Source: Candidatus Omnitrophota bacterium (GTDB lineage: Bacteria; Omnitrophota; Gorgyraeia; Zapsychrales; Zapsychraceae). Taken from it: a DNA stretch of 64,000 bases. The translations under genes and the position numbers were made by a program. The notes under the pieces were generated by a model. It was not told the DNA's origin, did no database searches, and was given only the letters and a program-made list of their open reading frames with translations. Location of the stretch: assembly GCA_028280285.1 (NCBI GenBank), contig JANQMA010000017.1:64993-128992 (forward strand). Direction: 5' to 3'. Of this stretch, positions 1,655 through 63,949 are shown in pieces (the stretch's first letter is position 1; each line of letters begins with the position of its first letter).

Positions 1655-1716
1655 GTGTAAAGTGTAATGTGTTATGTGTAATTTAAATTACACTTTACAC
1701 GTTACACATGACACAT
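1655..1716. repeat. Intergenic imperfect dyad repeat (GTGTAAAGTGTAATGTG ... CACATTACACTTTACAC)
   Basis: Arms are reverse complements (GTGTAAAGTGTAAT / ATTACACTTTACAC) around TTTAAA centre; between gltD-like stop and panB. Confidence 0.6.
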
Positions 1717-1724
1717 TTTTAAAA

Positions 1725-2597
1725 ATGACCATCGATCAAATAAAGAATAAAAAAGGTAAAGAAAAGATCACGATGCTGACGGCGTATGATTATCCGACCG
1801 GGGTGTGGTTGGATAAAGCTGGGGTGGATATTGTGCTTGTTGGGGACTCGGTGGCCAACGTTGTGCTGGGGTTAGATTCGACGACGGATATGACAATGGA
1901 TCAAATGATCTATCATGCGCAGGCTGTCCGTCGGGGCGTTGCAAACGCGCTGCTCATTGGAGATATGCCGTATGAGTCGTATCAGGTCGATCGCAATGCC
2001 GCCGTTGATAACGCTAAGCGGTTCATTGATGAAGCCGGGTGCGACGGAGTTAAACTGGAATGGTTTGATTCTCCTTCGCTCAGTCAAGAAACGAGCAGTG
2101 GAGCTTCGGAGGGCTTGCGTGATTGTGTTGAAGTCGCTTCGGCGATTGTTCAGGCTGGCATCCCGGTTATGGGGCATGTTGGCCTTACACCACAGACGGC
2201 TGAACAACTCGGCGGGATGAAGGTGCAGGGGAAAGACGCGGATTCTGCTAAGGCAATACTTAAACATGCTCAAGCATTAGAAAGCACGGGGTGCTTTAGT
2301 TTAGTGATTGAGTGTGTGCCAAGTCAATTGGCCAAACTCATTACAGATTCCGTTAATATTCCGACGATCGGCATCGGTGCGGGCGCTGACTGTGACGGGC
2401 AAGTCTTGGTGACGCATGATATGCTGGGGTTGTTTGACCGCTACCGCCCGAAGTTTGTGAAAAATTATGTTAACTTATCGGAAGCGATTGTGGATGGTGT
2501 GAAGCAGTATTGTAATGAAGTTAAAGGAGGAAAGTTTCCGGCAGGGGAGCATGAGTTTAATATGAATGAGGAAGATCTAAAAAAATTGAAAGAATGA
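1725..2597 (+). CDS. panB: 3-methyl-2-oxobutanoate hydroxymethyltransferase (ketopantoate hydroxymethyltransferase)
   Basis: ITMLTAYDYPTG, DIVLVGDSVANVVLG, IGDMPYESY motifs typical of PanB; ORF-track start 1674 lies inside the upstream dyad repeat so ATG 1725 (MTIDQIK) preferred. Confidence 0.8.
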   Translation: MTIDQIKNKKGKEKITMLTAYDYPTGVWLDKAGVDIVLVGDSVANVVLGLDSTTDMTMDQMIYHAQAVRRGVANALLIGDMPYESYQVDRNAAVDNAKRFIDEAGCDGVKLEWFDSPSLSQETSSGASEGLRDCVEVASAIVQAGIPVMGHVGLTPQTAEQLGGMKVQGKDADSAKAILKHAQALESTGCFSLVIECVPSQLAKLITDSVNIPTIGIGAGADCDGQVLVTHDMLGLFDRYRPKFVKNYVNLSEAIVDGVKQYCNEVKGGKFPAGEHEFNMNEEDLKKLKE

Positions 2598-2602
2598 AAA
2601 GG

Positions 2603-2657
2603 GTGATCTGTAGTCTGTGATCAGTGTTCTGACCACGGACCACAGACCACGGAGCAC
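2603..2657. repeat. Intergenic imperfect dyad repeat (GTGATCTGTAGTCTGTGATCAGTG / CACGGACCACAGACCACGGAGCAC)
   Basis: Tandem GTGATC/GTGGTC-type words on left arm, their complements CCAC(G/A)GACCAC on the right. Confidence 0.55.
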
Positions 2658-2661
2658 TTAA

Positions 2662-3564
2662 ATGAGTACACAATTCAAACACCTCCAACGCGCTTTTGCG
2701 CGCAATATTTTTTATTGTGCCCGTACGGTTATTAAACACATACCTTATCCCGTCTACCGCGTTATTTCTATTTTCTTTCTGTGGCTTGGATATTTAATCA
2801 TGTACAAACGCCGCACAATTATGAAACATAATCTTGATCTGGCGTATGGTGATTCGATTACCTCCGAGGAAAAAAGAGATATTCTCAATCAATGTTACAA
2901 AAATGTCGGCCAGGGCATGATCGATTTGATTTATTTTATCGATCGGCCTGAAGAGGTGAAAAAACGTGTTAGATTTGAAGGCTGGGAAAATTTAGAAAAG
3001 GCGCTTGAGGGCGGTAAGGGGGTTATTTTTTTAAGTGGGCATTTTGGGATTTTTATTCTGCTTTACATCCGTATGGCACTTGCCGGGCATGAAGCGAATG
3101 TGATCATGCGCCCGGTCCGCGATGATGACCTGGAAGAATACATTACCAAATTCCGTAAGGAAAACGGTATTAATACTATCTACGCCTTACCGCCGATGCG
3201 TTGCGTAACCCAGTGCCTTAAAGCGCTGCGTAAAAACGGTGTGCTTTTTATTTTGCTTGATCAGCATTATGGTTCCGAGGGCGGGGTTAAGGTTGATTTT
3301 TTCGGGCAACCGGCGGCTACCGCCACCGGGCCGGTTGTTTTTAATAGCCGCACGGGCTCGCCTGTCCTGCCGATTTTCATTGTCCGTGAAGGCGAGGGCA
3401 ATTATCACAAAATCGTGATTGAGCCTCCGGTTGATATTCAGGAGCATGATGATCCTCAAGAAAAAATCCGCATTAATATCCAAAACATGTCGGACATTAT
3501 CGAAAAGTATGTCCGTGCCTACCCCCACGAGTGGAGCGGCTGGCTGCATAAACGTTGGAAATAA
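2662..3564 (+). CDS. Lipid A biosynthesis acyltransferase family protein (LpxL/HtrB-like lysophospholipid acyltransferase)
   Basis: N-terminal membrane anchor, FLSGHFG motif region and overall ~300 aa architecture of the lipid A lauroyl/myristoyl acyltransferase family. Confidence 0.5.
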   Translation: MSTQFKHLQRAFARNIFYCARTVIKHIPYPVYRVISIFFLWLGYLIMYKRRTIMKHNLDLAYGDSITSEEKRDILNQCYKNVGQGMIDLIYFIDRPEEVKKRVRFEGWENLEKALEGGKGVIFLSGHFGIFILLYIRMALAGHEANVIMRPVRDDDLEEYITKFRKENGINTIYALPPMRCVTQCLKALRKNGVLFILLDQHYGSEGGVKVDFFGQPAATATGPVVFNSRTGSPVLPIFIVREGEGNYHKIVIEPPVDIQEHDDPQEKIRINIQNMSDIIEKYVRAYPHEWSGWLHKRWK

Positions 3565-3689
3565 CCGTAACCGGCACCGGGTGCGGGCACACCGGTTAGC
3601 TAAAGGTAACTAGGTGGGAAATAATCTATTTCCTACTTGTTATTTATCCCACTATATTGTATACTTACTTAGTGAGACAGGAGGGCATT

Positions 3690-4361: not shown

Positions 4362-7300
4362 ATGATTATTAAAAGCAGATTAAAAGTTATTATTAATAAA
4401 GTGCTTGTGTCTGTGGTGTTGACGGCTTTTATTATGACAAGCATTGTGCCGGTCAATTTTGCCCAGGCGCAGGTGACACCACCCATGGCCTTGCCGGCGG
4501 TAGGCACACTGGTGCCGTTATCAAGCGCGCACACCCCTGTTCATTTACTTGGCCTTACCGTGAGTCCCGATAATCCGCTTGCCTTTGATTTTTTGATCCA
4601 CTCGGGCGACAATCCGCCGGCCGAACAAACCCTCAAACAAGAAGCCGATACCCTGATCCGTTATTTTTTGGCCTCTTTAACAATCCCTGAAAAAGACATG
4701 TGGGTCAACTTATCCCCGTATGAAGAGGACCGGATCATCGAGGATAATTTTGCCCGGACTGCGATGGGCCGCGATCTGTTGGCAGAGGATTACATGTTAA
4801 AGCAGTTGACGGCATCGCTGCTTTATCCTGACGGCGATATCGGCAAAGTCTTCTGGCGGCGTGTCAGGCAAAAGGCCGAGGCGCTGGGCCTTAAAGATAT
4901 CCCAACCGAAACCTTTCATAAGATTTGGATTACGCCGGAGTCGGCGACTGTTTTTGAAGATGGACAGACGGCGTATGTGGTGGAGTCGAAGCTTAAGGTC
5001 TTGCTGGAAGAGGATTACTTAGCGTACAGCGAACAGCGGATAGCGAATAGTAGTGCTCAGCAATCAGTTGATAACTCTCTAAACGCTAAACGCCATACGC
5101 TAAACGCTGATTTAATGCGCGAGGTCATCATTCCCGAAATTACGCACGAAGTGAACTATGGCGCACACTTCGCCCGCCTGCGTCAAATCTATGGCGCGAT
5201 GGTGCTTGCCACCTGGTTTAAACAAAATTTAAAACAAACGCTGCTCGGGCAAATCTACGCCGATCAAAGCAAAGTCAAAGGCATTGATACAGTTAAAGAG
5301 GACGCCCACAAGCGTATTTACGCCCAGTACATCGATTCAATTAAAAAAGGCGCCTACAACCTGATTAAAGAAGACTATGATCCGGTGGCCCAACGGATCG
5401 TTGCCCGCAAACACTTCTCCGGCGGTTTCGCACCTGATGCCGCGGCCATTACAACCGTTAAGACGGAAAGCCTGAATGCTGCCGATGTAACCACGCAAAA
5501 ACAAATCAACGACTTTGCCTTTAATTTTGATGCGGCTGTTGCGCAAAAGGAAGTTTTTAACGTACAGACATCATTAGCCGAATCTAAAGAAGACCCCGCG
5601 GCGATGAAGGGAGTTATTGATTCAGCAGTAATGAATGTTCAGCAACAAGATGGTGACTACATCACCCAGCTAGATAAGACGGCCGATGCAGCGGGTTTGA
5701 GCCGGAAAATTCAGGATCTACGCACAATGCCGACGGCCACATTGCAGGCCTATTTTAGTATTCTTAAGTCTGACTTTATGACGGGGCGGACAAAATACAC
5801 GTATCGTCAGCATTCGAGTATCCTTAGCGAATACTGGTCCAAACTGTCTGAACATGAAAGTGAGCTGAGTAACGAAAAGTTTTATTTACAAGATCGTGTA
5901 GGCAGATTTCTTGATGTGACTAAATATCTCGAGGATCTGGATCAAAGAGGTATAAAAAAGATTAAATTAAACGGGGTTGATATTTTTCATCATCTATCCA
6001 ATCTAAGCGAGCCTGGATTGAATCAGGAGAAAATGCTCGAGGATATTTTACAAAGCTTTGCCGAACTTAAAATGATTCGTCCCCGCACTGATCCTGATCA
6101 AAATAAGATATCCAACAGCATTGAATTTAAAGAACGTGAAATTAAACACATTTTCCTCGCCAGTCCTGATGTCAACCAATTTGCTCCTCAGGAGCCGCTT
6201 GTGTTGAGTGTCTTGCTCCATCAGGATGGGGATTTTGAGATTGTTGAGGGTTTTGATATTACAAATGAGGATAGCCTGCGTATTGTTCTTGAAAAAGGAC
6301 AGAGGCCGTCTTTTCATTACCCATTGCCGTCAAGGTTAGGGGATTCTATCCGGATCAGCTTAGACCCGAATGATGAAAACAGTTTGGTCTTTGATAGGCT
6401 TGAGGCCCCAACCGAGCTTGTCCATTTTGCCTTAACGGCCGATGCAGCGAGTTTGCATCATTCCGCGCGCGGGAGAATGCGGTTGTCTCTCGATGACTTT
6501 AGTCTATATACCAGCCTATTAAACGAGAATCTGCAAAGCAAATATTTGTGGCATATTATTATTCAATTGGCTCGTCATGATCTACTAACTAAAGGGTTTT
6601 GGAGTAATGTGCTTGATTTTTCTGAGTCTTTTATTGCATATGACGGCCAGGAGTTATTTAATATGTTGAAAGAATCTTTTACCAAGAAGGGTCATCTGTA
6701 TCCTCAAGAATACCTTGCCCACGCGATCAACTCTTTAGCGACCATCAAGCGCCTTGCGCATAATCACTCTAATACATTTGAATTTAAACCGGGCGAGACA
6801 CAAAACATTGTTATGAAGGTCATCGGTAATGATAAAGTTGAGCCCTTTGTCCTGACAGCCCGGTATGACCGACAAAGGCAACAGTTTGCTTTTAAACGCC
6901 CGTCTTCTAATACAGAAGAGGTTGTGTCAATGAATCGCAAACAAATCTTTGAGATTCTGGATTTTTATAGGATTGAGTTGCGTCCTAGGTTGTCAGAGGA
7001 TGGCTGGACAGCAATGCTTGAGATGACTAATGCACACACTTATAGAGAGTTGTTTACCTATGCATTTACGCCACAGTATCCTCTTGTGTCGGTTCCATCT
7101 GGATTACTTTGGGATTATCTGACCTATCTCGGCCAAAACAAACGTAAACTTTATAAAACATTAGGGATTTTCTCTGTCAATGTTTTACTGCCGGTTGTCT
7201 TTGAGGGCCAGAAGTTAAAGGATATTAATTTTGATGGAAAAAATTTACTCTCCTTTGATGTTCGATGGCCGCAATATCAGTTTAGGCCGTTAATGGACAC

Positions 7301-10300
7301 GCTGAAAGAAAAACAACTACATGATCTCAAAAGGAATAGCAATTCAGCTGTTGATACCTACGTGTTTTCTAAAGAAGTTTTTAATAAGTTGGGAATAGTA
7401 AACAGGAGCGATGATTTTCATGCTATTTTTGACACATTGAATAGTCTGCGTTTTGTCAATCACCACCAAAGCAGTAAACAGCATGCACTTATTCCTGTTT
7501 CAGACAAACCAAAGAATGTGCATATTATCCTGAGAGAAAATGAGAACACTCAAAAAGAATTAATGGATGCCACCGTGAGTAAGCTGGCCGATGATTTGCT
7601 TAGCCTAAGTTTTAACGATAAATCTGTAACGGATCTTGTGATTATTCAGGATCAACAAATACGTTTGACAATAGATAACGAAATTACGCTTATTTTACGG
7701 CAGATTAAGGGGAACCTTCAGATTACATACATAACCAATGATCAAAGCATGCGCGATATCTTTCGCTTCACAGTTGGCTTTGATTCGGCGAGTTTGGGCA
7801 AGGAGAAGGATCTTGTTGGTGTGAAAGGGGTTGATGAAGATGCAGAAAATATTACCATCAGTCAATTTTTAGAGAATGCACCAAATACCATGGTGGCGGC
7901 CTTTAAAAACGGGTTTAAAAATAGAACTGATCATTTTGGACTTTTGAAACGTTTAAATAATAATGAAATGACAGCCAAATGGATACTTATGGCCGACAAA
8001 GTTCTGAGAGAGACTGCAGGGGCAGAAATCACCTACAGAGATTTTTCCTTAATAGACTTCTTGAAACAAAAAGGTTTTTCAAAATTGAGGCGTAATACGA
8101 TGTTTAGCCCCGATTTATTTATAACAATGGATGGAAAAAAGTATATTGGTGTATACGTCGGATCAAAAGGACTAAAAAGCACATTGGGTCAATTTTCTTT
8201 GTCTTCGGTTAAACGAAAGTGGTATAAGAAAATTTTACAAATGGATGGCAGCGGATTGGAAGGTATTATTTTATTAATGGATACTGATACGCCTGAATAT
8301 CCTGTACGTGAATTAACACCTATTAATGAGATGAAGGGTTTTTATGCCTTTCCATTATTTGAGAAGGCATTAATAGAAGCTCATCATAGGAAAGATGATT
8401 TAATAGGGTTTCCAAGCCTTTTATATGCTCATAATTTCAATTATGCTGAATCTTATCTTAATGATCTTATTTCGGATGTGCACAATTCTATTGCATTAAT
8501 TTCACGGATTAATTATTTCAGTCCACAGGAGCTGGCAGATTTCAAAAAGGATGTTGCCTATTACGAAGCTCGTGCACAGCAGTATTTAAATTATGCCAAA
8601 GAGGGTTTTAAAGAGCATCGAAAAGTTTTTGATAAATATATTAAAGAGTATAAACAAAGAAAAATTCCGGGTATTTATAAATTAGAAGAAATGATATTTA
8701 CGCGCAATATAGATATAGGTAATGTCCTTGTTACAAGTTTATTTGTATTGCAGACAGCTAAAACTTTAGAGCAGCTGGGATTTGATATTATTGAGTTTGA
8801 AACTAATTTAAATAGATCCACTAAACCGGACATTATCGTGGCAAAAAATGGCAGTAAATATATTGTAGAAGCTCATTGGCGTGAAGTGAGCCAATCTAAG
8901 TTTTTCGAAAGAAATAGTAGGGGATTTAAAAAGCCTTCTCAAAAGAGACGTTATAGACAGTATGTAGATGCGCATTCTGATTTTAAGGGCGTTATTCTGT
9001 CTTCATCATATCGATTTCAAACTCAAAAATCTAATGTAATCTTTAAGCATAAAAACGATGACAAAAGGACAAAAAGAATATTTATAGATATAAGTGATGA
9101 TCAGGATTTAATCGCTAGGAATATTGAACAAAGTTTTGATGAAGAAAGTTTAGGGTATGTAGACCATCAGCTGCTTTCTGATCAGAAGAAAGACGGGTTT
9201 TCTGATTATGCATCCATGTCTGTGATAAACGAAAACTTCTTAAAAGCAAATTTGAAGCCAGGTAAAAGATTAGAAAGTTTTAAGGATAGATTAGCTGATT
9301 ATTTAAATGAACAAATCCTCTTTGTTCAATCAGCAAAATCACGTGAAAAAATTTATGATCAAGTTGATCTGTTTTTAAGTGGTATTGATAGTTTGATTGA
9401 GGAGTATTTTTTAGACTCAATTGATGTGGATGAAATGTTAAGCGAATATGGGAAGGAATTAATGGCAGATCTGATGGCAGCAGGTGGAGTGAAAAGTGTT
9501 CAAGAGGCTGCAGTGCTCTTACAACGTCTTTTGGTTGTTGCTTTTGAGATGAATCATCGTTTTCTTGAGTTTAAAAATAATAATATTAAAGACGCTGATA
9601 CGGCGAAAAGGTATATTGATCAGTTTCTTAATCCAGGTATTTTAGAGCTCGCACGTAGGGCAGAACAGATGTATAAAAAATTAAAAGTGGCTTATGACAA
9701 TTTTTCCGTTATGGAGGAGTCTTATGTTCAAAGGAGAGGCTCAAATGAATCATTTGAACTGATGATAAAACGCTTTAAAGATGCGTTTTTTTCTGAATAT
9801 GGTTCGGAAACAATGCAGAAGGCTAAGGCAAGTTTTTCTAAAGGCGGCGTACTGCAAAAGCTTAGGGATTTTAAGTTTTCAAATGACAAACTTACTCAAG
9901 AGCAATTAGATGTACTTATAGAGTATGAGACAGTAGTGGATGAGATTGATCAAACGTTGCGTCCAATTTCTAAATATTGGGAGATTTTAATCACATTTTA
10001 TAATGACTTTGCTAACGATGTGGGAGCACAAGTAATACCGCTTAATGAAGGCCCATCCGTTTCCGTAAATTTCAACTTTCATAATCAATTTTCAGGTTTA
10101 AGTGGGGAAAGAACTAGTCTTAACGACGCGGCGGGGTTAAGTAAACAGGCGCAAGCTATGACGAAACTATCTCTTGGCCCATTGGAAAGACATTTAGAAG
10201 TTCTTGAAGCCTTTGAAGAGAAAGGTGTTTTAACATACTCTCTGGAAAATTACATGGAAGTTATCACAATGGGGGTAAACCCCAATAAAATAGGGGATTT

Positions 10301-13300
10301 GCTGGCAGCACCATTTTATCAACAAACTGATCATTATTGGGTACGAAACTTTACTCAATTTATTTATGAAAGTGTGGGATTAGAAGAACGTCAATCTGAT
10401 ATTCGATTTAATGCAAAGGAAATTTTTGAAAGGGTGAAATCAGATAGGCTTCTTGATAAAAATATGATAAGTGCTATTTTGAACGATTTGGCTGAGTTTA
10501 AATATATTAAAAATCCCAACTACGCTGATTCTAAAAAGACATTTGCTGATATTGAGTTTAATCCGGGAGAATCAAGACAAATTTTCCTTGTTAACCCGTA
10601 TTCGCTTAATATTTATGAAACTATCACTATTTCACATGATAAGAACTCAGGTAGTTTTGCAATTGCTCCACACGCTAATTATTTTTCTGATGCGGAAAAT
10701 GGGCAAGATGTCGAAAGGGCTATTCTTAAAAAACGGGGTAAAATATCTCATGAATATCGTTTATTGAGATCCCAAGAATTGGGTTATTCAATCCGTATTA
10801 GTTTAAATAAAAAAAATGACAACGCGTTGACGTTTGGAGGTGTCCACCCTAAAAATGGATTATTGATTTTTTCATCTGTGTTTGATGAAGCAAGTTTGGG
10901 GCAGGAGGATGAACCTGCCGACCCGGCGGTCTTGAAACAAAAAGATATTATGCAATTAGCGCATTTCGATCCTGATTTAGTTGCAAGGATTAAAACCAAT
11001 CTTTTTCAGGTATCAGAGGTGCCGGTGATTCGTGATAATCCCGCATTTTCCGTTCCTTTTTCTAAGGAGGATGGGTTTTTTGAGGGGATTAATGATTTAA
11101 AGGCATTGATGTACGCTGTCCAGAAGATGAAGGATTCTCTTGAGAACATAAGCCCGAAGTTAAATGCCGAAGGTGTGGGGCAATTATCCCCAACGATAGC
11201 ATCCATACAAAACGATTTCGATTTTCTTGTTGATGTGCAAAACAGATTGCGCTTGCATGAAGGGGTTACAGATACCATGTTTGTTTATAAAGAAGGGTTG
11301 CAACGGTTAATGGAGATTGTGAAATTTGACAATAGAGGCGATTTGTACGTTGTATACGCGGGTTTAGTCATGACGTATTTGCAGTATAAATATTCTAATA
11401 AAATAATTTACAATGATTTCGATCCAACAGATTCGTTCAAACTTAAAAGATTTTTTGATGTATATTCTATGGCTGACCGGTTTGATTTTCCTGCAACAGT
11501 GGTGCAAACCATTAACGGTATCGGCTCCATTGCAGATAAAATAAAAGTGGTACGCGCACTCAACGCGTGGGCCACCATGCGAACCCTGGCAAAAGGCGAA
11601 CAGACGCCGGTGTATTTTGAAACAGAAACCGGTGAACAAATTAAAACCGTTTATCTCAAACCGATTTCTTTTGATGCTTCAGAGCGCGACAAGCTTTTAA
11701 TGATGGAAGTTAAACGTGATCAATCGAACGTTTATTCTGTTCGCCAAAAGGGAAAAGAAAACTGGCAAGTCATCGAGCAGGATGCCCCGCGGACGTTTGG
11801 CTTAATGGGCGTGCATGTGACTTTTATGATTCAAAAGAAAGTGCTGCATATCGAAAATAATAGCCGGCATATTTTTATAGCTAGTATTTCAGAATCTATT
11901 AATGGAAAGACCTATGATGATGCGATGTTGTCTGAATATGCGGCACGAAAAATAATTTTTAGTGCAAAAGATTTTCTTATTATGAATGAGATTCTTAACC
12001 AGGATTATCCTGATTTGGCCAAACGTCACCGGTCTATGCTGTTTGCGCTTGTGCACGGCACGCCGTTAACTGATATTTGGCTATCTCGTCCGAAAAGATT
12101 TGTTGAACCTAACGCTAATTTCATTGTCGAAGAAGCAAGAGTGCGTGCTGCAGAAAACAGACCGTTTAATATTAGTCCTATAGGCGCAAAAATATATCTT
12201 GGTGTTGATGATAATGAGAAGAAAAAGATCAATCGCAGTTTGGTAGCGGATGTTTTAAATACGTGGGGAACGCTTATTCGCATTCATACTCAAGCAGCGT
12301 ACAGCATTCCTGTGTTTATGGAAGAAGGCGAAACACGCCAACTGTATGTTGTTAACAACGAGACCAAAGAATTTATTAAATTACAGATCAATCAGATGCC
12401 TGGTTATTTTGAAGTTATAGATATAAGCAATGGTAAAGAAGGATATGGTTATTGGGTGTTTCCTGATCATGATACCGAGAACGGAGACAATAAGATTTAT
12501 TTTGCCAATGGAAAAGACTATATCATATTGGATGAGGATCAATTTGATCAGTTATCGGTGATTAATGAAACCAATGCTGATTTGACAGCCTTTGCGGTCG
12601 ATCAAGCAAGTTTGGGCAAGGTAGTTAGAGCTGAAGAGGGTCGTTATGTGATTCAGAAAAATGGGGTTAATGTTTATTCAGATGTTACTGAAAGAGACAT
12701 GATTGACGTTTTTTTTAACAATACACCCGATTTGGAGCGACCAGTAGCTGAGGTGGCATTATATCGAAATAGTCGGGAGGATTATTATATTTCTTGGTGG
12801 GGCGGTTGGGCTATTAATGAAACATCTGTGAATGATCAGTCACAATGGTTTGATTGGAATACAGATAAATCACTTGCTGTTCGAAAAAATAAAATTTTAT
12901 ACAAATATGAATTGGAATCTAAAATAAATAAACTTATTGAACAGCGTTCAGATAGCCGAGAACCTCTCTATATTTTAGATTGGGGGTTTGGGGATGGAAC
13001 TGCTATTGATGAATTAGCACAAAAATTTGAACATATCGAAAACTTGTATTTTATTGGCTATGGAATGACACATGATAGTAAATGGAGTACTTTTGGAGAA
13101 ACTTTTAAACGTAAAAATATAATTATTTTTGATCATATTTGGAAATTAGAAAAACATTTAAAGAAAATTTTGAAAGGTAATAAGCTGGCTCTTGTTTATA
13201 GTCATTTTGGTTTAGCTCACTTATTAAGGGATTATCCAGATGATGCCAGGGAACAAATAAAAACTTTAATGAAGTATATGAAAAATGGAGCATCGCTTAT

Positions 13301-16300
13301 AACCAATTACTATTGGAATGATAGCCTTCCTAGTAAATTTGCAAAAGGATTTAGAAAGAAAACTATTAGCCCAAATACATTCAGTGCGTGGGCGATTGTG
13401 GAGATATTTAATGAAGACGCAGCAAGTTTAGGGCAGGAGGATGAATCTACCGACGCGGCGGGATTAGATATGCTGGCTTATATTATGTCACGGCGTGTGT
13501 TTGATCCGGATATTGCTAAAGAACTTGAAATATTGCATGCCCAATGGGCTAATATCGTTGATCAATTTATAAATACAAGTAAATATAATAAAAAATCTCA
13601 AAGACTGGTAGGGCCGACTGGTTGGACAATGTTCAAACGTTATGGTTTTAATAAAAATAAGGAACTGTATTTGGAATATTTTCAACGTCTGGGGGATGAG
13701 GGAGTCATTGATAGTTTTTCAATAAAGGTTACTGATGGGAGGTTAAAATACTTTGCTCCTGGATTGCATCACCATTCAGCTAGTTTTTTTGGTCAAGAAT
13801 ATGCAACAGATAGTGCGCCTCCGCGTTCTGGAAGTTTTGTTGTGCGCGTTTATGAACCTTTTTCGAAGGAACTAGAGGAAGAGATTAGAAAAATTTTTGG
13901 TGAATTTTTGGCGCAATATGGCAGGACTACTGGATTTGAAAATTTTGTTAAAGATTTTGATGAAGGGGTGATGCCAACAGTTGGTTCACAAATCAAGAAA
14001 AATCCCGGTGAGGCAGAAAATATTAAAAAGGCCTACAATGATGTACGAGATATACTTGTTCGAAAAAACAAAGACTACTGGCAAAAACTTCCGCGTCTTA
14101 TGGCAAGATTACAGCAAATACTTATAAGCGGTATTTATGTAAAAGAAGTAATTCATAAAGATGAAAAAAGGTTTAAGGATGCCCCGCCCGCCCGGATTTA
14201 TGCGTATGGAGATATGGGGTTTGAAGATCCGGTTGCATTTATTCAACATTTAAATAAAACAACACCACTGGTAGCGAAACTACTCTTAGGGGAAACATAT
14301 CTTGATCCAACATCGGGTATTGATATTAATGATCCTAGGATAGCAGAGGTTGTTGAAGAGCAGCCGTACTCTGAACAAGGCAAGCCTATCGATGAGGCGA
14401 ATTTGGGCAAGACGGGCGAATCTACCGATGCAGAACCAGAAAGCTTTGATGAAGAGATAAAGGAAGATAAAGATCAGGCGGCGATAACGGCAGTGGATGT
14501 TCATGGGACGCGTGTGCCAGGCGGTGGTATTATTTGGACAAGGATGCCGGCTCAATATTTTAAAGTTCTTCGGTTGCGTAGAGGAGGGAAAGCATACCTG
14601 CGCGAGTCTTCTATTAAGGGTTTAGTTTTGGAGAACGCTTTAGAACGTTATCGGCACAGTGATACTCCCTTACAAAAGGTTAATAATCATTTAGGAATAG
14701 ATTTGGTTGATGAAATTGTGCAATTAGATCAGTTACGTCAACGTGAGAATGAGCCAAACCGTGTGATTACTGTTTTAGATTGGGGTGGCGGCAGTATGCA
14801 GGCCATTAAAGATATTTTAAACGAATTAAAGGCTCAAAATATTAAAAATGTTCGCTTGATTGGTTCTGGGCATAGTACGTACCTGGAGTGGAAGGATATT
14901 CCGGAGGGGATTGAGGTTATTTGGGATGTGGCACAGAAGCTTCATTTATATATTGCTGAGGGCAGTATTGATATTATTTACAGTCATTATGGGATGTATC
15001 ATTTAGATGAACAATTACCGCAGTATTTGATGTATTTAGAGAAACTTCTTAGTCCTCGAGCAAAAATTTTGATATATCCTTTGGATGGAGATTTATCTGA
15101 GCAGTTACCAGGGTGGAAGTTAGAGATAAAAAGAAAGCATAAGAATATTTCTCGGTTGGATGTTAAGACACATAAGAAAAAATTTTGGTCTGGATTGATT
15201 TCTCGTATGATTTGGCCTGCTTCACAAAGAGTATCAGTCCGTAATTTCGCACCATTTAATTATAGTTATGAATTTACTCCGCCTTCTCGAATATCAATTA
15301 AATCGAAAGGCTCTGATCCGCTTGAGGGCCTTATGATTTCATCTTGGAGTGATACCCCAAAGGAGCGCATCATTTTGCCTAAAAGAAGTATGTCAAGTTT
15401 GCGAAGACGGGTGGGTGGACGTGATTTTGCGAGCCTGGAGCGGAAGGATGAGGCTCAAATCGACGCGGCGGGGTTGGATTTTAATGGAAAATTCTCGATG
15501 GCCAGTTATGGAAATAATGAAACTGATGTGATGAGATTAAATAGAATTACGAAAGGTAAAAGGTTGATTGAGAGAGTGCAACCGCAGCACTTTCGTTTGA
15601 ATAGTGCCGGTGTTAATATTTATTCGAGTTTACAAGATGAGGAAATAATAGACATCCTTTCGATATTAGATAGTGAAAAGATTGCTCGGATAAGACTTAA
15701 TAATCGAAATACTACGACAGACTACCACATTAGCTGGGAAAAACCATGGCGTATGAATCGTACACCACTTGATGCGGTTGATATGTTTGCGGGTCTTAAA
15801 TTTTATGAATTGGAGTCGAGAGTAGAAACTATTATTAATAATCGCCAGGATGACGCTGAACCGATTTATATTTTTGACTGGGGTTTTGGAGCAGGGACCG
15901 CGTTAAAAGAGTTGTCTGAGAAATTTGATAATATTCCTAACATATTTTTTATCGGATTTGGTGACGCTTATTATGAAGATTGGCATACACTGCCGAGTAA
16001 TGTCATTATTATTTACGATCAGGCTTGGAGGCTAGAGGAGCATTTATCAAAAATTCTTAAGGGGCATAAAATTGATCTGGCTTTTAGTCATTGGGCGTTA
16101 TCTTCACACTTTTTAGGTGATTATTTTGGCCCAAAAAGAGTATATTTTTTAAGACTTATGGATTTTCTAAAACCTGGTGCTTCCTTTGTTATTGATGCTC
16201 TGAATGATTCCGGTGCAGAGTTGGGCATTAGACGGGATTTTAATGTTCAAAAAATACCAGTGAGCAACTATTATTTCGGCGATATATTTGAAGTAAAAAA

Positions 16301-20180: not shown

Positions 20181-20330
20181 CGGCGAAGCAGTGCCTCTGC
20201 CCTAAATAGTACCAAGTTTTGGGTCGACACATTGGTCGGCTTGTACCTATCGGTGTTGTGAAAAATACTTGCCAAATTTTACACTACATTATATTATTAT
20301 ATAAGATATGTAGTGTAAGGAGTGTGGACT

Positions 20331-20636
20331 ATGATTATTTTACAAGAGATTTTAGCTGATAGCAAAAAGCATTATCAAGAAGTCCGAAAGAAAATTCTCA
20401 AAAATCTTTCTTCGCTTCCCCAGGGGAGTGTCAAAAAACGTAAGATTTCTAAGCGTATCTATTATTATCTCCAACAGAGGGTCGGTTCTAAAATTATTCA
20501 TAAATATTTAGGTAAAGAAGAGCCGGAGGAGTTAATTAAAGAGTTAAAATTACGTAAGTCTTTGAAAGCTGAGCTTAAAAAAGTCGATGAGGCTTTAAAG
20601 GTTATACAAAAAGTCCAAGGCAAAAAGTATGGATAA
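20331..20636 (+). CDS. Small basic protein (cassette 1 gene A), possible antitoxin/regulator partner
   Basis: SD AAGGAG 9 nt upstream of ATG 20331 (ORF-track GTG 20322 less likely); 8-nt overlap with the following gene; lysine-rich C-terminus. Confidence 0.4.
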   Translation: MIILQEILADSKKHYQEVRKKILKNLSSLPQGSVKKRKISKRIYYYLQQRVGSKIIHKYLGKEEPEELIKELKLRKSLKAELKKVDEALKVIQKVQGKKYG

Positions 20637-21309
20637 TGTGATTGCCAAAATTCTGAAAGTTTTTGAAAATAATAATCTATTTGAAGAAGGCGTAGAGCTG
20701 ATTGGAAGCTGGTGTTTTTACTTGTATCAAAAACATTTAAAGGCTCCGAGTTTTCCGCTGCGAACACAGGACATTGATTTTCTAATTCCCAATCCATTTA
20801 AGGGCAAAGAGCATAAAGAGTTTATTCAGCAGTTGGAGGACTTGGGTTTTCAGAGTGAATTTAATCGGAGTGGATCGCTTTACCTTTGGAATGTGGATTT
20901 AAAAATAGAATTTATCACGCCGGCAAAAGGCAGAGGCACGGCCGATGCGGTAAAATTTAAAAAGCTGGGACTAGCGGCCGTACCTTTGAGATTTGTTAAT
21001 CTGTTGCTCAATGATCCTATTTATGTTACGGAGAAGGGAGTAAAAACAGCTCTTCCAAATCCTGCTAATTATTGCCTTCATAAGTTGGTGATTGCTAGCC
21101 GTAGAAAGACGAAGGACAAGCAAATGAAAGATTTACAGCAAGCCATATCTACCTACAGTATTGCTGATAAGAGGTATTTAAAAAAACAATTTAACAACTT
21201 TCCCGAAAAATGGAAAGCTACCGCTGTCAGTATGCTTAAAAAGAATCGAGATCAGCTGCCTCTTTTTGATGCGGAGATAGAGCAAATTTTAATTACACTA
21301 CAAAATTAA
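20629..21309 (+). CDS. Putative minimal-nucleotidyltransferase-fold protein (AbiEii/GSU2403-like) (cassette 1 gene B)
   Basis: GSWCFYLYQ...RTQDIDFLI matches the G[SG]x9-13 DhD nucleotidyltransferase signature; translationally coupled to upstream small gene. Confidence 0.35.
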   Translation: MDNVIAKILKVFENNNLFEEGVELIGSWCFYLYQKHLKAPSFPLRTQDIDFLIPNPFKGKEHKEFIQQLEDLGFQSEFNRSGSLYLWNVDLKIEFITPAKGRGTADAVKFKKLGLAAVPLRFVNLLLNDPIYVTEKGVKTALPNPANYCLHKLVIASRRKTKDKQMKDLQQAISTYSIADKRYLKKQFNNFPEKWKATAVSMLKKNRDQLPLFDAEIEQILITLQN

Positions 21310-21358
21310 TAATTTTATATAATGTAGTGTAAAATTTTTTTATAAGTTTGTTGACAGC

Positions 21359-21472
21359 GCGCCGGTGACCACCGTCCCGCTTATTTTTAGCCAAATTCTT
21401 GAAGATCAACAGGATACAGATCACGCCTCGGTGACGGATTATCCGCAGTTGTCGTATGCGATTAAAGAGTGA
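21359..21472 (+). pseudogene. Displaced duplicate of the 3' end of the giant gene (last ~37 codons, no start codon)
   Basis: ~90% nt identity to 20068..20180; encodes APVTTVPLIFSQILEDQQDTDHASVTDYPQLSYAIKE* versus native PVTTVPLIFSQILGEQGDTDHASVTDYPQLSYAIKE*; 8 synonymous vs 3 nonsynonymous differences. Confidence 0.7.
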
Positions 21473-21579
21473 TTGGTGATTTAGAAAGTATATGATATTA
21501 TAAAATTCTAGTGGCTATTCCTCCCCAAAGTATGCTGTAACTTCAAACTATTCGATTTCCCTTACAATATTAATTTTTG

Positions 21580-21608: not shown

Positions 21609-21619
21609 TAAGTAAGGGG

Positions 21620-50712: not shown

Positions 50713-50773
50713 TAGGGACGGACCCTATTTAATTCAACAGTTTACATGATAAATTAAATAGGGTCCGTCCCTA
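50713..50773. repeat. Perfect 22-bp inverted repeat with 17-nt loop
   Basis: TAGGGACGGACCCTATTTAATT ... AATTAAATAGGGTCCGTCCCTA. Confidence 0.8.
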
Positions 50774-50830
50774 GTTTAAATAATGATTCTCGGTGTTGAG
50801 TTTCTTCTTGGGAATTGGTAGAATAATAAA

Positions 50831-50918
50831 AAGGGTTTAGGGGTAAGGGGTTAAAGGGTAAAAAATAATAAGCTCTAAATAAATTTAACCCTATAACCCT
50901 CTAGCCCTTTATCCCTAC
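50831..50918. repeat. Dyad repeat of GGGTTTAGGGG/GGGTAAAGGG words and complements
   Basis: AAGGGTTTAGGGGTAAGGGGTTAAAGGGTA ... AACCCTATAACCCTCTAGCCCTTTATCCCTAC. Confidence 0.6.
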
Positions 50919-50946
50919 TGTATTCTTATTAAATCAGGAGTATAAA

Positions 50947-54536: not shown

Positions 54537-54540
54537 ATAC

Positions 54541-54589
54541 AGTTGCTAGTTGCTAGTTGCCAGCGACAAGCAACTAGTGACTAGCAACT
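54541..54589. repeat. Dyad repeat of AGTTGCT words (terminator-like hairpin after pnp)
   Basis: AGTTGCTAGTTGCTAGTTGCCAGCGACAAGCAACTAGTGACTAGCAACT. Confidence 0.65.
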
Positions 54590-54629
54590 ATATAGCTATC
54601 AAAGCGTTCTATTTTTCATTTCATCCTAT

Positions 54630-57915: not shown

Positions 57916-58011
57916 GTATTAGTGGTACGTTATCAGTGATACGTGATACGACGCAAACCGTAAACCGAATATCGGATAACGTCGTAGCACATACCACGGA
58001 TCGCGTATCAC
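57916..58011. repeat. Dyad repeat of GTGATACGT / ACGTATCAC-type words
   Basis: GTATTAGTGGTACGTTATCAGTGATACGTGATACGACG ... CGTCGTAGCACATACCACGGATCGCGTATCAC. Confidence 0.6.
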
Positions 58012-58020
58012 TTTTTTATT

Positions 58021-59319: not shown

Positions 59320-59906
59320 AGTGTGTTCCTAATATCTTGACGACAGCGCGTATTATTCTGACCTTTGTGTTTCTTTATTTGATTCACTTGGAAGGGTTGC
59401 AGGCAAAGGTGTTGGCGGCGAGTGTGTTTTTTGTGGCCGGATGGACGGACTTTTTTGACGGCTATTTCGCGCGTAAATACAATATTGTCTCTGACTTCGG
59501 CAAAATTATGGATCCGATTGCCGATAAGTTTTTTGTTTTGGCCGGTTTTTTTACATTTGTTCAGCTGGACTATATTCCTGTGTGGATGTTTGCCGTGATC
59601 GCGGTCCGTGAAATTTATTTAACGTATCTTCGACTGGTGGCGACACAAAAAGGTCTTGTGTTAGCCGCTGAGGGTGCCGGTAAATATAAAACAGCTTTTC
59701 AGATGCTTACCATCGGGTTTATTTTGTGGGTGATTCTAGCGGAGGAAAAGTTGGGGGGAATTATTACTGCTGCTGATGGTAATCAACATCCTTTTTGGTA
59801 TAATGGGATCGATGTTTTGATGTGGCTCGTTGTGATTCTTACAGTTTACTCAGGGTTGCAGTTTTTGTGGAATAATAAGGATAAACTATATACAAAGAGT
59901 GAGTAG
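59316..59906 (+). CDS. pgsA: CDP-diacylglycerol--glycerol-3-phosphate 3-phosphatidyltransferase
   Basis: CDP-alcohol phosphatidyltransferase motif DGYFARK..G..DPIADK; ~6 TM. Confidence 0.8.
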   Translation: MKCVPNILTTARIILTFVFLYLIHLEGLQAKVLAASVFFVAGWTDFFDGYFARKYNIVSDFGKIMDPIADKFFVLAGFFTFVQLDYIPVWMFAVIAVREIYLTYLRLVATQKGLVLAAEGAGKYKTAFQMLTIGFILWVILAEEKLGGIITAADGNQHPFWYNGIDVLMWLVVILTVYSGLQFLWNNKDKLYTKSE

Positions 59907-60003
59907 GGAATAGTGATTAGGCAGTAGTAGTTGAGTAGGGGGTAGGTTGCCTAATCCCTACGCACTATTGCCTACTAATGCCTGATGCCTACTCACTAAT
60001 CCC
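59901..60003. repeat. Dyad repeat of GAGTAGGG/GTAGG words and CCTA complements
   Basis: GAGTAGGGAATAGTGATTAGGCAGTAGTAGTTGAGTAGGGGGTAGG ... CCTAATCCCTACGCACTATTGCCTACTAATGCCTGATGCCTACTCACTAATCCC. Confidence 0.6.
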
Positions 60004-60030
60004 TTTTAAGTGTTTTACTTGGAGCAAGGT

Positions 60031-60486: not shown

Positions 60487-60757
60487 AAATTAAAAAGAAA
60501 AAGTAAAAAAGAAAATTAAGAATTAATAAATGTATTTGGTAATTGGTATTTAGTAATTGGAGGTTAATAATTTATCAATCAAATTTGTAATAAAAGTATA
60601 GTTTGAAAAAATCACGTTTTTATTAGATTTTTTTATAAACCAATTACAAATTACTAATTATCAAATACGATTTTTATTTTTTTAATTTCTTTAAATTCTC
60701 ATTTTTCTTTTTAAATTTTTATTTCTCAATTTTTAATTATCAAGCAAGGAGGAAGCA
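60487..60757. repeat. ~270-nt AT-only imperfect inverted repeat filling the intergenic spacer
   Basis: AAATTAAAAAGAAAAAGTAAAAAAGAAAATTAAGAATT vs AAATTCTCATTTTTCTTTTTAAATTTTTATTTCTCAATTTTTAATT; GGTAATTGGTATTTAGTAATTGG vs CCAATTACAAATTACTAATTATC. Confidence 0.55.
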
Positions 60758-61542: not shown

Positions 61543-61580
61543 AAAAAGCCTATTCAACTGACGCAGTTGAATAGGCTTTT
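61543..61580. terminator. Bidirectional rho-independent terminator between convergent genes
   Basis: AAAAAGCCTATTCAACTG-ACG-CAGTTGAATAGGCTTTT. Confidence 0.75.
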
Positions 61581-62046: not shown

Positions 62047-62095
62047 AGCGAAATACCACCACACGAACCTCGTAGGTTCGTGTGGCTTAAATGCC

Positions 62096-62124
62096 TTGAC
62101 AAGAGCGTGGCTTTCCCGTATATT
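62096..62124 (+). promoter_or_regulatory. Sigma-70-type promoter of ribBA-ribH
   Basis: TTGACA - 17 nt - TATATT; leader contains perfect 9-bp inverted repeat AAACTATTT-N6-AAATAGTTT (62175-62198). Confidence 0.45.
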
Positions 62125-62236
62125 TAGAGCTCCAATCTTATTAGTAATAATATACATTATTATATTAGAGCGGTAAACTATTTTATTGCAAATAGTTTTG
62201 TAAATTTCCCATTTAACTCATAAGCGAGGATTAATT

Positions 62237-63385
62237 ATGTTCCATTCTATTGAAGAGGTTTTAGAAGATTTAAGACAGGGTAAGGTTATTATTGTTATGG
62301 ATGATGAAGGGCGAGAGAATGAAGGGGATTTGCTTTGCGCGGCTGAAAAAATCACACCAGATACGATTAATTTTATGGCCCGTCACGCGCGCGGCCTTAT
62401 TTGTGTACCCATGGAATCTGAGCGCTTGGATGCACTGGATCTCCATCCAATGCGCGTTGAGATGGGGCATAAGCATTTGAAGGATGATACGGCCTGGACC
62501 ATTTCAGTTGATGCATCTAAAGGTGTTACGACCGGTATTTCAGCGGCTGACCGGGCACAAACGGTTAAAACACTCATTGATTCTGAATCCACCCCAAAGG
62601 ATTTTATTACCCCTGGTCATCTTTTTCCACTCCGTGCCAAAAAAGGTGGTGTTTTAGTGCGTGCCGGGCACACAGAGGCCTCGGTTGATCTCACACGTTT
62701 GGCGGGTCTCTATCCCGCTGGTGTTATCTGTGAGATTATGAATGAAGATGGGACCATGGCACGTAATCCGGATCTTAAAAAATTCTCACAAGAACACGAC
62801 ATTAAGATTTGCACCATTGATTCATTGATTGAGTACAGACGGCAATCGGAAAAGTTAGTTAAAAAAATCGAAGAGTCAGAAATTACAACAGAGTTTGGGC
62901 CATTTAAACTGAATGTGTATAAATCTCAAGTGGATAATTCAGAGCACATCGCTTTGGTTAAAGGCGATATTAACAGTGATGAATCGACGCTTGTCCGTGT
63001 ACATGCGCAAAATGCGATTGGCGATACATTCCGTGCAACAAATGGTGGTTCGGGACGCTTACCGGCAGCGCTTAAAGCGATTCAAGAAAATGGGTCGGGA
63101 GTGCTTATCTATATGATGCAGGATAGAGAGGGCGTATCCTTATCTGATCAGGTTGCTGCGCTTAATGCCAAAAAAGAAGCGATCAAGGATGATGGCGTTG
63201 AGATGAATATTGCTTTTTCCTCAGAGCTTCGTCATTATGGGGTAGGCGCACAAATTTTGGTTGATCTAGGGGTCACGCAATTGCGCCTTTTAACCAATAA
63301 TCCACGCAAGATTGTCGGGCTGGATGGTTATGGACTGTCGATATCAGAGCGTGTTGCTCTTGAAGGAGAAAAGGTATCCGCGTAA
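62237..63385 (+). CDS. ribBA: 3,4-dihydroxy-2-butanone-4-phosphate synthase with C-terminal GTP cyclohydrolase II-like domain lacking the zinc-binding cysteines
   Basis: RibB N-half (DDEGRENEGDL.., RAGHTEASVDL); C-half aligns with GCH II but RVHAQNAIGDTFRATNGGSGRL replaces RVHSECLTGD..CDCG. Confidence 0.7.
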   Translation: MFHSIEEVLEDLRQGKVIIVMDDEGRENEGDLLCAAEKITPDTINFMARHARGLICVPMESERLDALDLHPMRVEMGHKHLKDDTAWTISVDASKGVTTGISAADRAQTVKTLIDSESTPKDFITPGHLFPLRAKKGGVLVRAGHTEASVDLTRLAGLYPAGVICEIMNEDGTMARNPDLKKFSQEHDIKICTIDSLIEYRRQSEKLVKKIEESEITTEFGPFKLNVYKSQVDNSEHIALVKGDINSDESTLVRVHAQNAIGDTFRATNGGSGRLPAALKAIQENGSGVLIYMMQDREGVSLSDQVAALNAKKEAIKDDGVEMNIAFSSELRHYGVGAQILVDLGVTQLRLLTNNPRKIVGLDGYGLSISERVALEGEKVSA

Positions 63386-63399
63386 TGTTTAGGTGATCT

Positions 63400-63873
63400 A
63401 TGAAAATTATAGAAGGCCAATTAAAAGCCAAGAACAAGAAGATAGCCATTGTTGTTGCGCGGTTTAATGAGTTTATTACCAAGCGTTTATTAGATGGGTG
63501 CTTGGATGAATTGAAGAAACTTGGTGTGGCCGATAAAAATATAACGATTGTGTGGGTGCCGGGGGCTTTTGAAATTCCTGTGACGGCGGCAAAAATTGCG
63601 GCTAAACCGTATCATGCGGTTATTTGTTTAGGGTGTATTTTAAAAGGTGAAACCGATCATTATGATCTGGTTGCACAAGGGGCAACGCAAGGTATTGCAG
63701 AGGTATCGCTCAAAGCCGGTAAACCGGTTATTTTTGAAGTGCTTGCCTGTGAAACGGTTGAGCTCGCCGATAAGCGTTCTAAACCTAAGGGTAATAACAA
63801 AGGACGCGACGCAGCCCAAGTAGCATTAGAAATGATTGATACTCTTTCTCAGATCAATAAGGATGGGAAATAG
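63400..63873 (+). CDS. ribH: 6,7-dimethyl-8-ribityllumazine synthase
   Basis: IAIVVARFNEFIT..VPGAFEIP..GETDHYDLV..G lumazine synthase signature. Confidence 0.85.
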   Translation: MKIIEGQLKAKNKKIAIVVARFNEFITKRLLDGCLDELKKLGVADKNITIVWVPGAFEIPVTAAKIAAKPYHAVICLGCILKGETDHYDLVAQGATQGIAEVSLKAGKPVIFEVLACETVELADKRSKPKGNNKGRDAAQVALEMIDTLSQINKDGK

Positions 63874-63879
63874 CTAATG

Positions 63880-63949
63880 CCGTACTTCGGACATCGTACT
63901 TAGTACATCGTAGATTCACGACGTACGACGTACGAAAAACGAAGTACGC
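63880..63949. repeat. Dyad repeat of CGTACTT / AAGTACG and GTACGTCG words
   Basis: CCGTACTTCGGACATCGTACTTAGTACATCGTAG ... CGACGTACGACGTACGAAAAACGAAGTACG. Confidence 0.6.

Follow-up and report, generated by a model that had tools for sequence, protein, structure and literature searches.

A 64,000-nt stretch of a Candidatus Omnitrophota genome (NCBI GenBank assembly GCA_028280285.1, contig JANQMA010000017.1, positions 64,993 to 128,992; hereafter the window) carries long imperfect hairpins in many of the spacers between its genes. These elements are heptamer-repeat palindromes: about four tandem 7-nt units, each with a T-N-R-G core followed by three variable bases, then a loop, then a complementary array. 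Their abundance is confirmed to be far beyond chance. They belong to the class of heptameric simple repeats that are over-represented in bacteria, with the inverted GGGAATC pairs of Xanthomonas as their nearest known relatives, and they bring that class into a new lineage with diversified words. One hairpin encloses a gene of the PF05635 family, and such genes are flanked by heptamer arrays in several phyla. From these analyses we infer that the elements are intercistronic processing or stability elements and housing for PF05635 cassettes, and not terminators. Processes acting on DNA appear to make and homogenise the arrays; their consequence for the host would most plausibly lie at the RNA level.

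The initial annotation had proposed hairpins with arms of tandem words at 16 sites, and long imperfect inverted repeats with such arms are present at 15 of them. A strict search for ungapped Watson-Crick inverted repeats gave 11 clusters in the window against 0.5 ± 0.6 in block shuffles, upholding the proposed excess of dyads. When each spacer was compared with its own dinucleotide shuffles, the fold z-score was −3.4 to −8 in 15 of about 33 spacers. The statement that nearly every intergenic spacer holds a hairpin was therefore too strong, the share being 15 of about 33 spacers, or 15 of 26 when only co-directional spacers of 50 nt or more are counted. The arms converge on opposite strands, with 379 Watson-Crick pairs among 473 aligned arm positions. 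The sites at 24501 and 24956 are real but are the two arms of a single stem that encloses a 125-aa gene, and two elements were missing from the earlier list: 33985–34150, and 5019–5108, which lies in frame in a 5272-aa open reading frame (ORF).

The unit of the arms is 7 nt, at times read as 14. Tandem words are thus real, but the proposed range of 6–10 nt is not; units of 8–9 nt occur only at 29636. Period-7 tandem runs numbered 14 against 0.4 in shuffles, with a slight excess at periods 6, 8 and 9 and background levels at periods 4–5. Tandem Repeats Finder returned period 7 or 14 (two units) in nearly every arm, at 2.6–7.4 copies, with the words TGTGTAA, GACCACG, AGTGATC, GTGGTCT, GGTGTTC, TAGGGAA, AAGGGGT, AGTTGCT, GTGATAC, GTAATTG and ACGACGT. 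The words do differ between loci, with at least eight in the window, but they are not fully locus-specific, as word families recur: a GTGRTCW-type word is common to 2603, 24501, 27811, 28716 and (as GGTGTTC) 33100, and a TAGGGNN-type word to 42499, 50831 and 59901. The elements and the gene that one of them encloses are as follows, with the strand given where the feature has one.

1654–1715: heptamer hairpin, (TGTGTAA)x4 then the complement, loopless; from an oxidoreductase gene (285–1643) to panB (ATG 1725).
2602–2659: heptamer hairpin, GTGATCT/GTAGTCT units and (GACCACG)x4; 7 nt past the panB stop and reaching the ATG at 2662.
5019–5108, plus strand: in-frame heptamer hairpin, (TAGCGAA)x4 ... 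(CTAAACG)x4; residues 220–249 of the 5272-aa ORF, LAYSEQRIANSSAQQSVDNSLNAKRHTLNA.
24502–24536, plus strand: 5′ arm of the gene-bearing hairpin, (AGTGATC)x4, overlapping the hisS stop codon.
24552–24579, plus strand: leader hairpin, CTATCCCCC...GGGGGATA, pairing the Shine-Dalgarno-like G-run just 5′ of the enclosed ATG.
24581–24958, plus strand: gene of the PF05635 23S_rRNA_IVP / TIGR02436 family, 125 aa, four-helix bundle, in the hairpin loop.
24954–25006, plus strand: 3′ arm of the gene-bearing hairpin, (ACTGATC)x7, pairing with 24502–24536; ppdK ATG at 25030.
27812–27872: heptamer hairpin, GTGGTCA/GAGTTCA/GTGATCG and (CTGATCA)x3; from ppdK to a sigma-70 gene, whose ATG is 2 nt past the stem.
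28716–28772: heptamer hairpin, (GTGGTCT)x3.4 and (GACCACG)x3.9; from the sigma-70 gene to a LacI-type gene; spacer fold z −7.7.
29636–29800: hairpin with 8–9 nt units, AGTGATAG, and a 54-nt A/T-rich loop; 5′ of a phosphoribosyltransferase gene.
33098–33185: heptamer hairpin, (GGTGTTC)x4 then GAACAC units; 5 nt past tRNA-Arg (33019–33092).
33985–34150: hairpin of 14-nt units, (AGATAAATGGTGTC)x2.3, whose complementary arm is distant.
42495–42620: heptamer hairpin, (TAGGGNN)x6 then the complement; directly 3′ of the U-tract terminator 42447–42489; the 5′ arm fits a G-quadruplex motif.
50829–50920: heptamer/octamer hairpin, (AAGGGGT)x4 and (TAACCCTA)x4; a G-quadruplex motif fits both strands.
54537–54595: heptamer hairpin, (AGTTGCT)x3 and (AGCAACT)x3; starts at the pnp stop codon, 5′ of ftsK.
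57921–58015: heptamer hairpin, GTGATAC units; from rodZ to a MiaB/RimO-type gene; T-run past the stem.
59893–60010: heptamer hairpin, TAGNNNN units; fills the pgsA–pgpA spacer and overlaps the pgsA stop codon.
60505–60695: A/T-rich heptamer hairpin, (GTAATTG)x4 and (AATTACA)x3.4, with a 73-nt loop.
63880–63950: heptamer hairpin, (CGTACTTAGGACAT)x2.3 and (ACGACGT)x2.6; from ribH to a putative nusB (ATG 63973).

The ORF at 63973 reads as a putative nusB by eye from its first few codons and runs off the window. The sixteenth site, 50713, is not a tandem-word hairpin but a near-perfect palindrome of another family (50713–50773) that has the arm GACGGACYCTRTTT in common with 30364–30409. The pair forms a separate family resembling repetitive extragenic palindromic (REP) elements and is not heptamer-based; 30364–30409 is also the best terminator-like match within 20–40 kb. 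A self-complementary heptamer array, (GAGCTYC)x4, lies at 19895–19928 near the 3′ end of the giant ORF.

The elements are set in a window of about 42% G+C with positive GC skew, whose plus strand holds nearly all genes. These include the housekeeping operons with panB, hisS, ppdK, the sigma-70 gene, pnp, ftsK, rodZ, pgsA–pgpA and ribBA–ribH, together with the 5272-aa ORF (4362–20180) and a small toxin-antitoxin island. The nearest relatives of the PPDK protein among species genomes are from Candidatus Omnitrophota and Planctomycetia metagenome-assembled genomes (MAGs), at 71–76% amino acid identity. The island (20181–23011) is accessory, is lower in G+C than the hairpin-rich housekeeping regions and holds zero heptamer hairpins; it encodes DUF6788 with a nucleotidyltransferase, a RelE/MqsA-type pair and a DUF6290/ParE pair.

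Within the spacers the placement is tight. The element starts a median of about 6 nt past the upstream stop codon, sometimes including it, and the end of the stem is typically about 8 nt from the next ATG (0–9 nt at seven sites). A promoter would not fit into this gap, and transcription of the downstream genes must therefore pass through the hairpin. Elements are found inside the classical operon pairs pgsA–pgpA and ribH with the putative nusB. Shine-Dalgarno sequences 3′ of the hairpins were seen by eye at about half of the downstream genes, with no pattern.

The head-to-tail 7-nt units and the location of 15 elements in spacers, with 5019–5108 and 19895–19928 as coding exceptions, place the arrays in the heptameric tandem-repeat class that includes the short tandemly repeated repetitive (STRR) sequences and the long simple-sequence repeats. 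Rehm et al. (2015; PMC4692102), whose inverted pairs come from Xanthomonas campestris and X. citri, report 186 GGGAATC arrays in the X. campestris genome and 70 convergent GGGAATC pairs with stem-loop potential, including those in the groES–groEL and atpA–atpG spacers, and describe the arrays as conserved in position, variable in length between species and mostly transcribed. The likeness to our elements is close: about four 7-nt units and a complementary array in one spacer, 6–20 nt from the flanking genes in operons such as groES–groEL and atpA–atpG. Xanthomonas, as described there, uses the single genome-wide G-rich word GGGAATC, whereas the window has at least eight words. The cyanobacterial STRR and heptameric long simple-sequence repeats (Mazel 1990; Mrazek 2007, as cited in PMC4692102 and PMC4679880) also have intergenic tandem 7-nt units and several word families per genome, but in those citing passages they are described mainly as direct arrays, whereas arrays in the window are almost always paired with a complement. 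TAACTGA direct repeats of 2–6 units occur a few nucleotides from start codons in Beggiatoaceae, Cyanobacteria and Bacteroidetes (MacGregor 2015; PMC4679880). They too are heptamer arrays near starts, and their word contains stop codons and partly fits a T-N-A-G core, but it is one fixed word in direct order (one inverted case is reported) and the repeats are proposed to be sites for a translational regulator. Omnitrophota is a third, distant lineage with heptamer repeats, after Xanthomonas and the cyanobacteria, and the window has them in palindromic form at high density.

As the initial annotation held, this is not one REP or miniature inverted-repeat transposable element (MITE) in many copies, yet all the elements have a common architecture. 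Only the 4-nt core and related words recur from arm to arm, and the loops show no relation to each other. With REP/REPIN elements and their REP-associated tyrosine transposases (RAYTs) they share the presence of short extragenic palindromes in the spacers of operons, and there too a single-copy gene has repeats of its own genome on both sides. The differences are that the window has neither near-identical dispersed copies nor a GTAG head, and that the flanked gene encodes a four-helix bundle and not a Y1 transposase. No Y1 transposase family was found by Pfam and NCBIfam among the roughly 40 window proteins scanned, a set that leaves aside the 5272-aa ORF and several small ORFs. Integron attC sites and CRISPR are ruled out by anatomy, there being neither conserved core sites nor a repeat-spacer array.

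The enclosed ORF at 24581–24958 matches PF05635 / TIGR02436 ('23S rRNA intervening sequence protein') with E = 1e-38. The arms of this cassette (24502–25006) form a stem of about 29 bp with a cofold energy of −48 kcal/mol (z −11.5); in the minimum-free-energy fold of the whole 517-nt unit, this is the closing stem. A PF05635 ORF within a long stem is the arrangement of the S23p-type 23S rRNA intervening sequences of Coxiella and Leptospira. The Coxiella sequence is 428 nt long, with an S23p ORF in the loop and a 28-bp terminal stem that RNase III cuts in the middle (PMC4990558). The two systems share an ORF of about 0.4 kb in the loop and a terminal-repeat stem of about 28–29 bp (PMC4990558). 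Unlike the intervening sequence, which lies in helix 45 of 23S rRNA, the cassette lies between hisS and ppdK, and such cassettes have a spacer of an mRNA or tRNA operon as their host transcript. An Rfam scan of the window gave zero family matches and zero rRNA.

In the 5′ leader of the cassette, a CCCCC/GGGGG hairpin pairs the Shine-Dalgarno-like GGGGA 5′ of the PF05635 start. The same is seen in L084, L086, L087 and L089–L103 (L-numbers label the compared loci and contigs, which are mostly metagenomic). This C-run/G-run hairpin of the closest cassette clade looks like a translational control element. We also considered a relation to Avd, the accessory protein of diversity-generating retroelements. 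The match to the Avd model NF033474 reaches 38.7 bits, below the cut-off of 80, and no neighbouring gene has a reverse-transcriptase domain, and a diversity-generating retroelement was rejected on both counts. A search for PF05635 remnants in the long-looped hairpins, by tblastn of L001–L081 and the window, matched intact genes only.

The association between PF05635 and heptamer arrays is general. A metagenome scan with alignment of relatives gave 80 loci with 74 evaluable PF05635 genes, 66 of which are flanked by inverted arrays (z ≥ 5), with 7 as the best period in nearly all arms. When genes were compared on the same contigs, 36 of 42 PF05635 genes (86%) were flanked, against 12 of 256 other ORFs, and three of these 12 are further PF05635 genes. 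Across at least three phyla 86–89% of PF05635 genes are flanked despite divergence of the protein to about 40% identity. An association of 86% against about 4% is a strong cross-phylum link, and literature searches found no paper linking PF05635 with heptamer repeats. The hisS–ppdK context is shared by none of the metagenome cassettes; other cassettes were found in the argG–argH spacer, the groES–groEL spacer and, in Ferruginibacter, the atpD–atpC spacer. In another Omnitrophota MAG (L002) a homologous PF05635 gene is flanked by GTTGTCA... and ...CTGACAA. Cassettes or heptamer hairpins also lie between or adjoining tRNA genes (L094, 2326–3222; L117, 1–721; L002, 14248–14720; window, 33019–33185). 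Heptamer hairpins and cassettes therefore occupy spacers of stable-RNA operons as well as those of mRNA operons.

A solved member of PF05635, XCC0516 of X. campestris (PDB 2GSC, five chains in the entry), connects the family directly to the Xanthomonas repeats. Its gene lies between accB and accC and is enclosed by two GGGAATC-type arrays. The 5′ array (GGGAATC GGGAGTG GAGAATC GGGAATC) starts 6 nt past the accB stop, and the 3′ array (CCCATTC CCCATTC TCGACTC CCTATTC CC) ends exactly at the accC ATG. The arrangement accB–PF05635–accC is also present in X. sacchari and Dokdonella fugitiva, and the word and the abutment on stop and start are kept across Xanthomonadales genera. In the supplementary table of PMC4692102, array 15 overlaps the XCC0516 start, and in the passages and supplementary tables consulted the gene is labelled only 'conserved', with no protein family.

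A cultured flavobacterium, Robertkochia sediminum (L167), has four cassettes within 20 kb. The four paralogues have only about 60% nucleotide identity, which speaks against recent cassette transposition there, and each has its own arrays and word. At three of the four (genes at 529, 1969 on the minus strand, and 10001) a palindromic TATAGAAAATAWTCTATA followed by a TAnnTTTG-like box lies between the 5′ arm and the ATG; this motif and box may be a common operator or promoter. At 895–1020, 3′ of one PF05635 gene, more than 14 copies of the 8-nt CCTCCGTA far exceed the 5′ arm. On another contig that carries a PF05635 cassette, L114, an IS200-like Y1 transposase gene (PF01797; 4371–5557) is flanked by TAACGTGCCTCC...GGGACCCCGTCC palindromes. 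These are ordinary REP-like palindromes and not heptamers, and the locus looks like a RAYT/REP pair.

Comparison of orthologous spacers shows how the elements change. L089 and L091 are syntenic contigs of 85% identity, from which three orthologous spacers were compared. The first holds a TCAG-NNN hairpin in both contigs, and the differences at its variable positions are not cleanly compensated. In the second, both arms have changed in concert: one contig has (TAAGTCG)n around a loop of about 100 nt, the other (TCAGTCG/TCAGACT)n around a short one; the length is 144 nt against 57 nt, and the BLAST alignment stops exactly at the element. In the third, a PF05635 cassette keeps its arms and its leader hairpin. 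The spacer orthologous to that between ppdK and the sigma-70 gene in another Omnitrophota MAG (about 71% PPDK protein identity) likewise has a heptamer hairpin with different words. Conserved structure and changing sequence are thus borne out both between L089 and L091 and in the PPDK–sigma spacer, and the suggestion of the initial annotation that the elements arise locally by slippage or template switching fits the concerted change of the arms between L089 and L091. The comparison supports slippage-driven turnover of units together with copying between arms as the probable process, and the lasting architecture speaks against pure neutrality.

The in-frame element at 5019–5108 shows the same kind of sequence in a coding region. 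Its 90 nt are stop-free, and units that would otherwise place TAG in frame carry CAG. The conserved N-terminal domain of the giant ORF (residues 1–346, about 345), which includes this segment, has more than 7000 relatives in a representative protein library, 376–5808 aa in length. When 11 relatives of about 50% identity were aligned, three shared a near-identical 30-residue segment, LA-SEQRIA-SS...NSLNAKR-T-NA, at this position, and the rest had loops there that vary in length and are unrelated. The pattern suggests that a variable loop of the protein tolerates a nucleotide-level element.

The words themselves have a conserved core. In 50 non-redundant cassettes placed in register, the 5′ arm has T (0.89), A/C (0.84), A (0.82) and G (0.94), followed by three variable positions, and 34 of the 50 arms match all four core positions where 5.7 are expected from shuffled units. 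Most window words have a looser T-N-R-G core (TCAG-TGA, TCTG-TGG, TAGG-GAA, TAAG-GGG, TACG-TGA, TTAG-TAC), and Bacteroidota words fit the core more poorly. In all of the roughly 84 hairpins examined the core-bearing arrays point toward the loop, and the opposite arrangement was never seen. A G/T-rich arm that is always 5′, including in the two minus-strand Robertkochia cassettes, might seem to indicate polarity relative to transcription, but that reading is void: the reverse complement of a G-arm followed by a C-arm has the same arrangement, so the observation shows only that one arrangement is exclusive.

Taken together, these results lead us to a tentative account in which the arrays originate by slippage and copying, reside in transcribed spacers, form RNA stems with an RNase III-type processing or stability role, and house PF05635 genes; we hold it at slightly short of an even chance. 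The arrays would grow and turn over through replication slippage in 7-nt steps, and copying from arm to arm by intrastrand template switching would keep the arms alike, such that words drift in concert while architecture and position persist. Lying in operon spacers and transcribed if the operons are, the elements would be read through, and in the polycistronic RNA the arms are predicted to form an imperfect stem of 20–45 bp (−25 to −70 kcal/mol). This stem would loop out the spacer or the PF05635 gene it carries and bring the upstream stop and the downstream start to its base. It is of the type that would serve as a substrate for RNase III, the enzyme that excises the architecturally identical PF05635-bearing 23S intervening sequences. 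REP elements stabilise the upstream mRNA, and they are a proposed model for how heptamer elements work. The RNase-protective structures suggested in the initial annotation are, like processing ones, plausible.

Several observations weigh against this account. The link to RNase III is one of shared architecture only, because an Rfam scan of 60 metagenome cassette loci placed none of them in an rRNA gene. The in-frame copy at 5019–5108 is placed where a processing site would cut the mRNA of the giant gene. The stems carry no wobble signature: in 62 cassette stems with 1891 Watson-Crick positions, mismatches compatible with G·U in the sense RNA number 95 against 82 compatible only in the antisense (p = 0.37), and transversion mismatches are commoner (239). 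The window alone has 32 G·U-compatible mismatches against 14, an excess that could come from strand-biased C-to-T mutation or deamination. Finally, the 7-nt period, the conserved 4-nt core and the exclusive toward-loop arrays are left unexplained by a plain need for double-stranded RNA and suggest a sequence-specific factor. We keep the origin of the elements separate from their effect, because the symmetric mismatch spectrum, the conserved core and the exclusive arrangement point to a component at the level of DNA or of protein recognition.

That component is the whole of the main rival explanation, in which the heptamers are arrays of putative protein sites on DNA, possibly for the PF05635 pentamer, that mark the ends of mobile or maintained elements in the manner of REP/REPIN–RAYT, with the RNA hairpin as a by-product. 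Such an array would have just the conserved 4-nt core at 7-nt spacing and the single arrangement, pointing toward the loop, seen in the roughly 84 hairpins, and a symmetric mismatch spectrum is what constraint on DNA would give. Heptads of 7 bp (WATCACW), arrayed in direct or inverted order, are for instance the sites bound by the omega repressor. PF05635 genes have the word of their own genome on either side, for example GGGAATN in Xanthomonadales, and the four very divergent Robertkochia paralogues have a word each; the protein is related to the nucleic-acid-binding Avd through the NF033474 match and forms a pentamer (PDB 2GSC). On the other side, the window has at least eight words and one PF05635 gene only, no catalytic motif for mobility is known in the protein, target-site duplications were not seen, and the cassette paralogues are ancient at about 60% nucleotide identity, with recent transposition not evident. 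We regard this explanation as unlikely but as a genuine contender.

It is less likely still that the elements are a neutral by-product of mutation, arising from 7-nt slippage and template switching at quasi-palindromes and persisting without function in spacers, where a unit that is not a multiple of three is tolerated. Rapid concerted turnover of words and lengths between relatives is what such a process would leave, as are the many transversion mismatches without wobble preference, and the discussion section of PMC4692102 invokes polymerase slippage for the over-representation of heptamers. A neutral process sits poorly with hairpins kept at orthologous spacers of genomes at about 71% PPDK protein identity, with arrays that flank 86–89% of PF05635 genes in at least three phyla down to about 40% identity, with the conserved 4-nt core, and with only one of two possible arrangements ever being seen. 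The arms of the accB–PF05635–accC cassette and their exact abutment on stop and start have moreover been kept across Xanthomonadales genera.

The leading idea of the initial annotation, that the hairpins are intrinsic terminators or attenuators without a U-tract at gene 3′ ends, we consider very improbable. The elements do come after stop codons and their stems are stable. The absence of U-tracts holds for most of them; by eye, three or four of 15 (1655, 57916 and 59901 among them) have at least four T past the stem. In a scan for a short G+C-rich stem, a loop of 3–8 nt and then a U-tract, none of the 10 elements between 20 and 60 kb fitted the pattern; the totals of the terminator and promoter scans were at about shuffle level and hence uninformative, apart from no hairpin qualifying. 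The elements thus lack the stem, loop and U-tract form of an intrinsic terminator, and they do not close a transcription unit ahead of a further promoter, for which there is no space. They lie within conserved operon pairs, including the essential accB–accC and groES–groEL in relatives. Canonical U-tract terminators are present elsewhere, at operon ends: one at 42447–42489, directly 5′ of hairpin 42495, and a bidirectional one at 61543–61580 between convergent genes. Because most of the hairpins fill the stop-to-start gap inside likely operons and U-tract terminators occur elsewhere in the window, we conclude that the hairpins are intercistronic elements and not terminators.

Regulation by repeats that form G-quadruplexes, a role suggested for the heptamers of Xanthomonas and Nostoc, is scarcely credible here: the 5′ arms at 42499–42523 and 50833–50858 fit four G3+ tracts with N1-7 spacers, and GGGAATC repeats form G-quadruplexes in vitro (PMC4692102), but the motif is in only two of 15 elements, 13 lack G3 tracts, and most words (GTGATCA, AGTTGCT, GTAATTG, CGTACTT), unlike GGGAATC, cannot form quadruplexes. 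As a general explanation for the window it is refuted, and it could still apply to the TAGGG-type subset.

The practical consequence for annotation is that these hairpins mislead calls of ORF starts and should not be annotated as terminators. The wider interest lies in two old questions. Although bacterial heptameric repeats, which are statistically over-represented, have been known since 1990, to our knowledge neither their function nor their origin has been established. Likewise, we know of no function assigned to the PF05635 '23S rRNA intervening-sequence protein' in about 30 years. A speculative and rather doubtful possibility would join the two: PF05635 pentamers may be the cognate trans partners of the heptamer palindromes, each paralogue recognising its own flanking word, with the cassette residing in transcribed spacers of rRNA, tRNA and core mRNA operons and being looped out or excised so that the host operon works. 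Such a protein-binding reading would be a more novel result than the RNA-processing account. Because XCC0516 (PDB 2GSC) lies between accB and accC in X. campestris, a tractable organism, and its structure is solved, both questions can be tested directly there; the proposed partnership, if true, would tie together the heptamer repeats (STRR, GGGAATC and TAACTGA), the rRNA intervening sequences and the large families of PF05635 paralogues.

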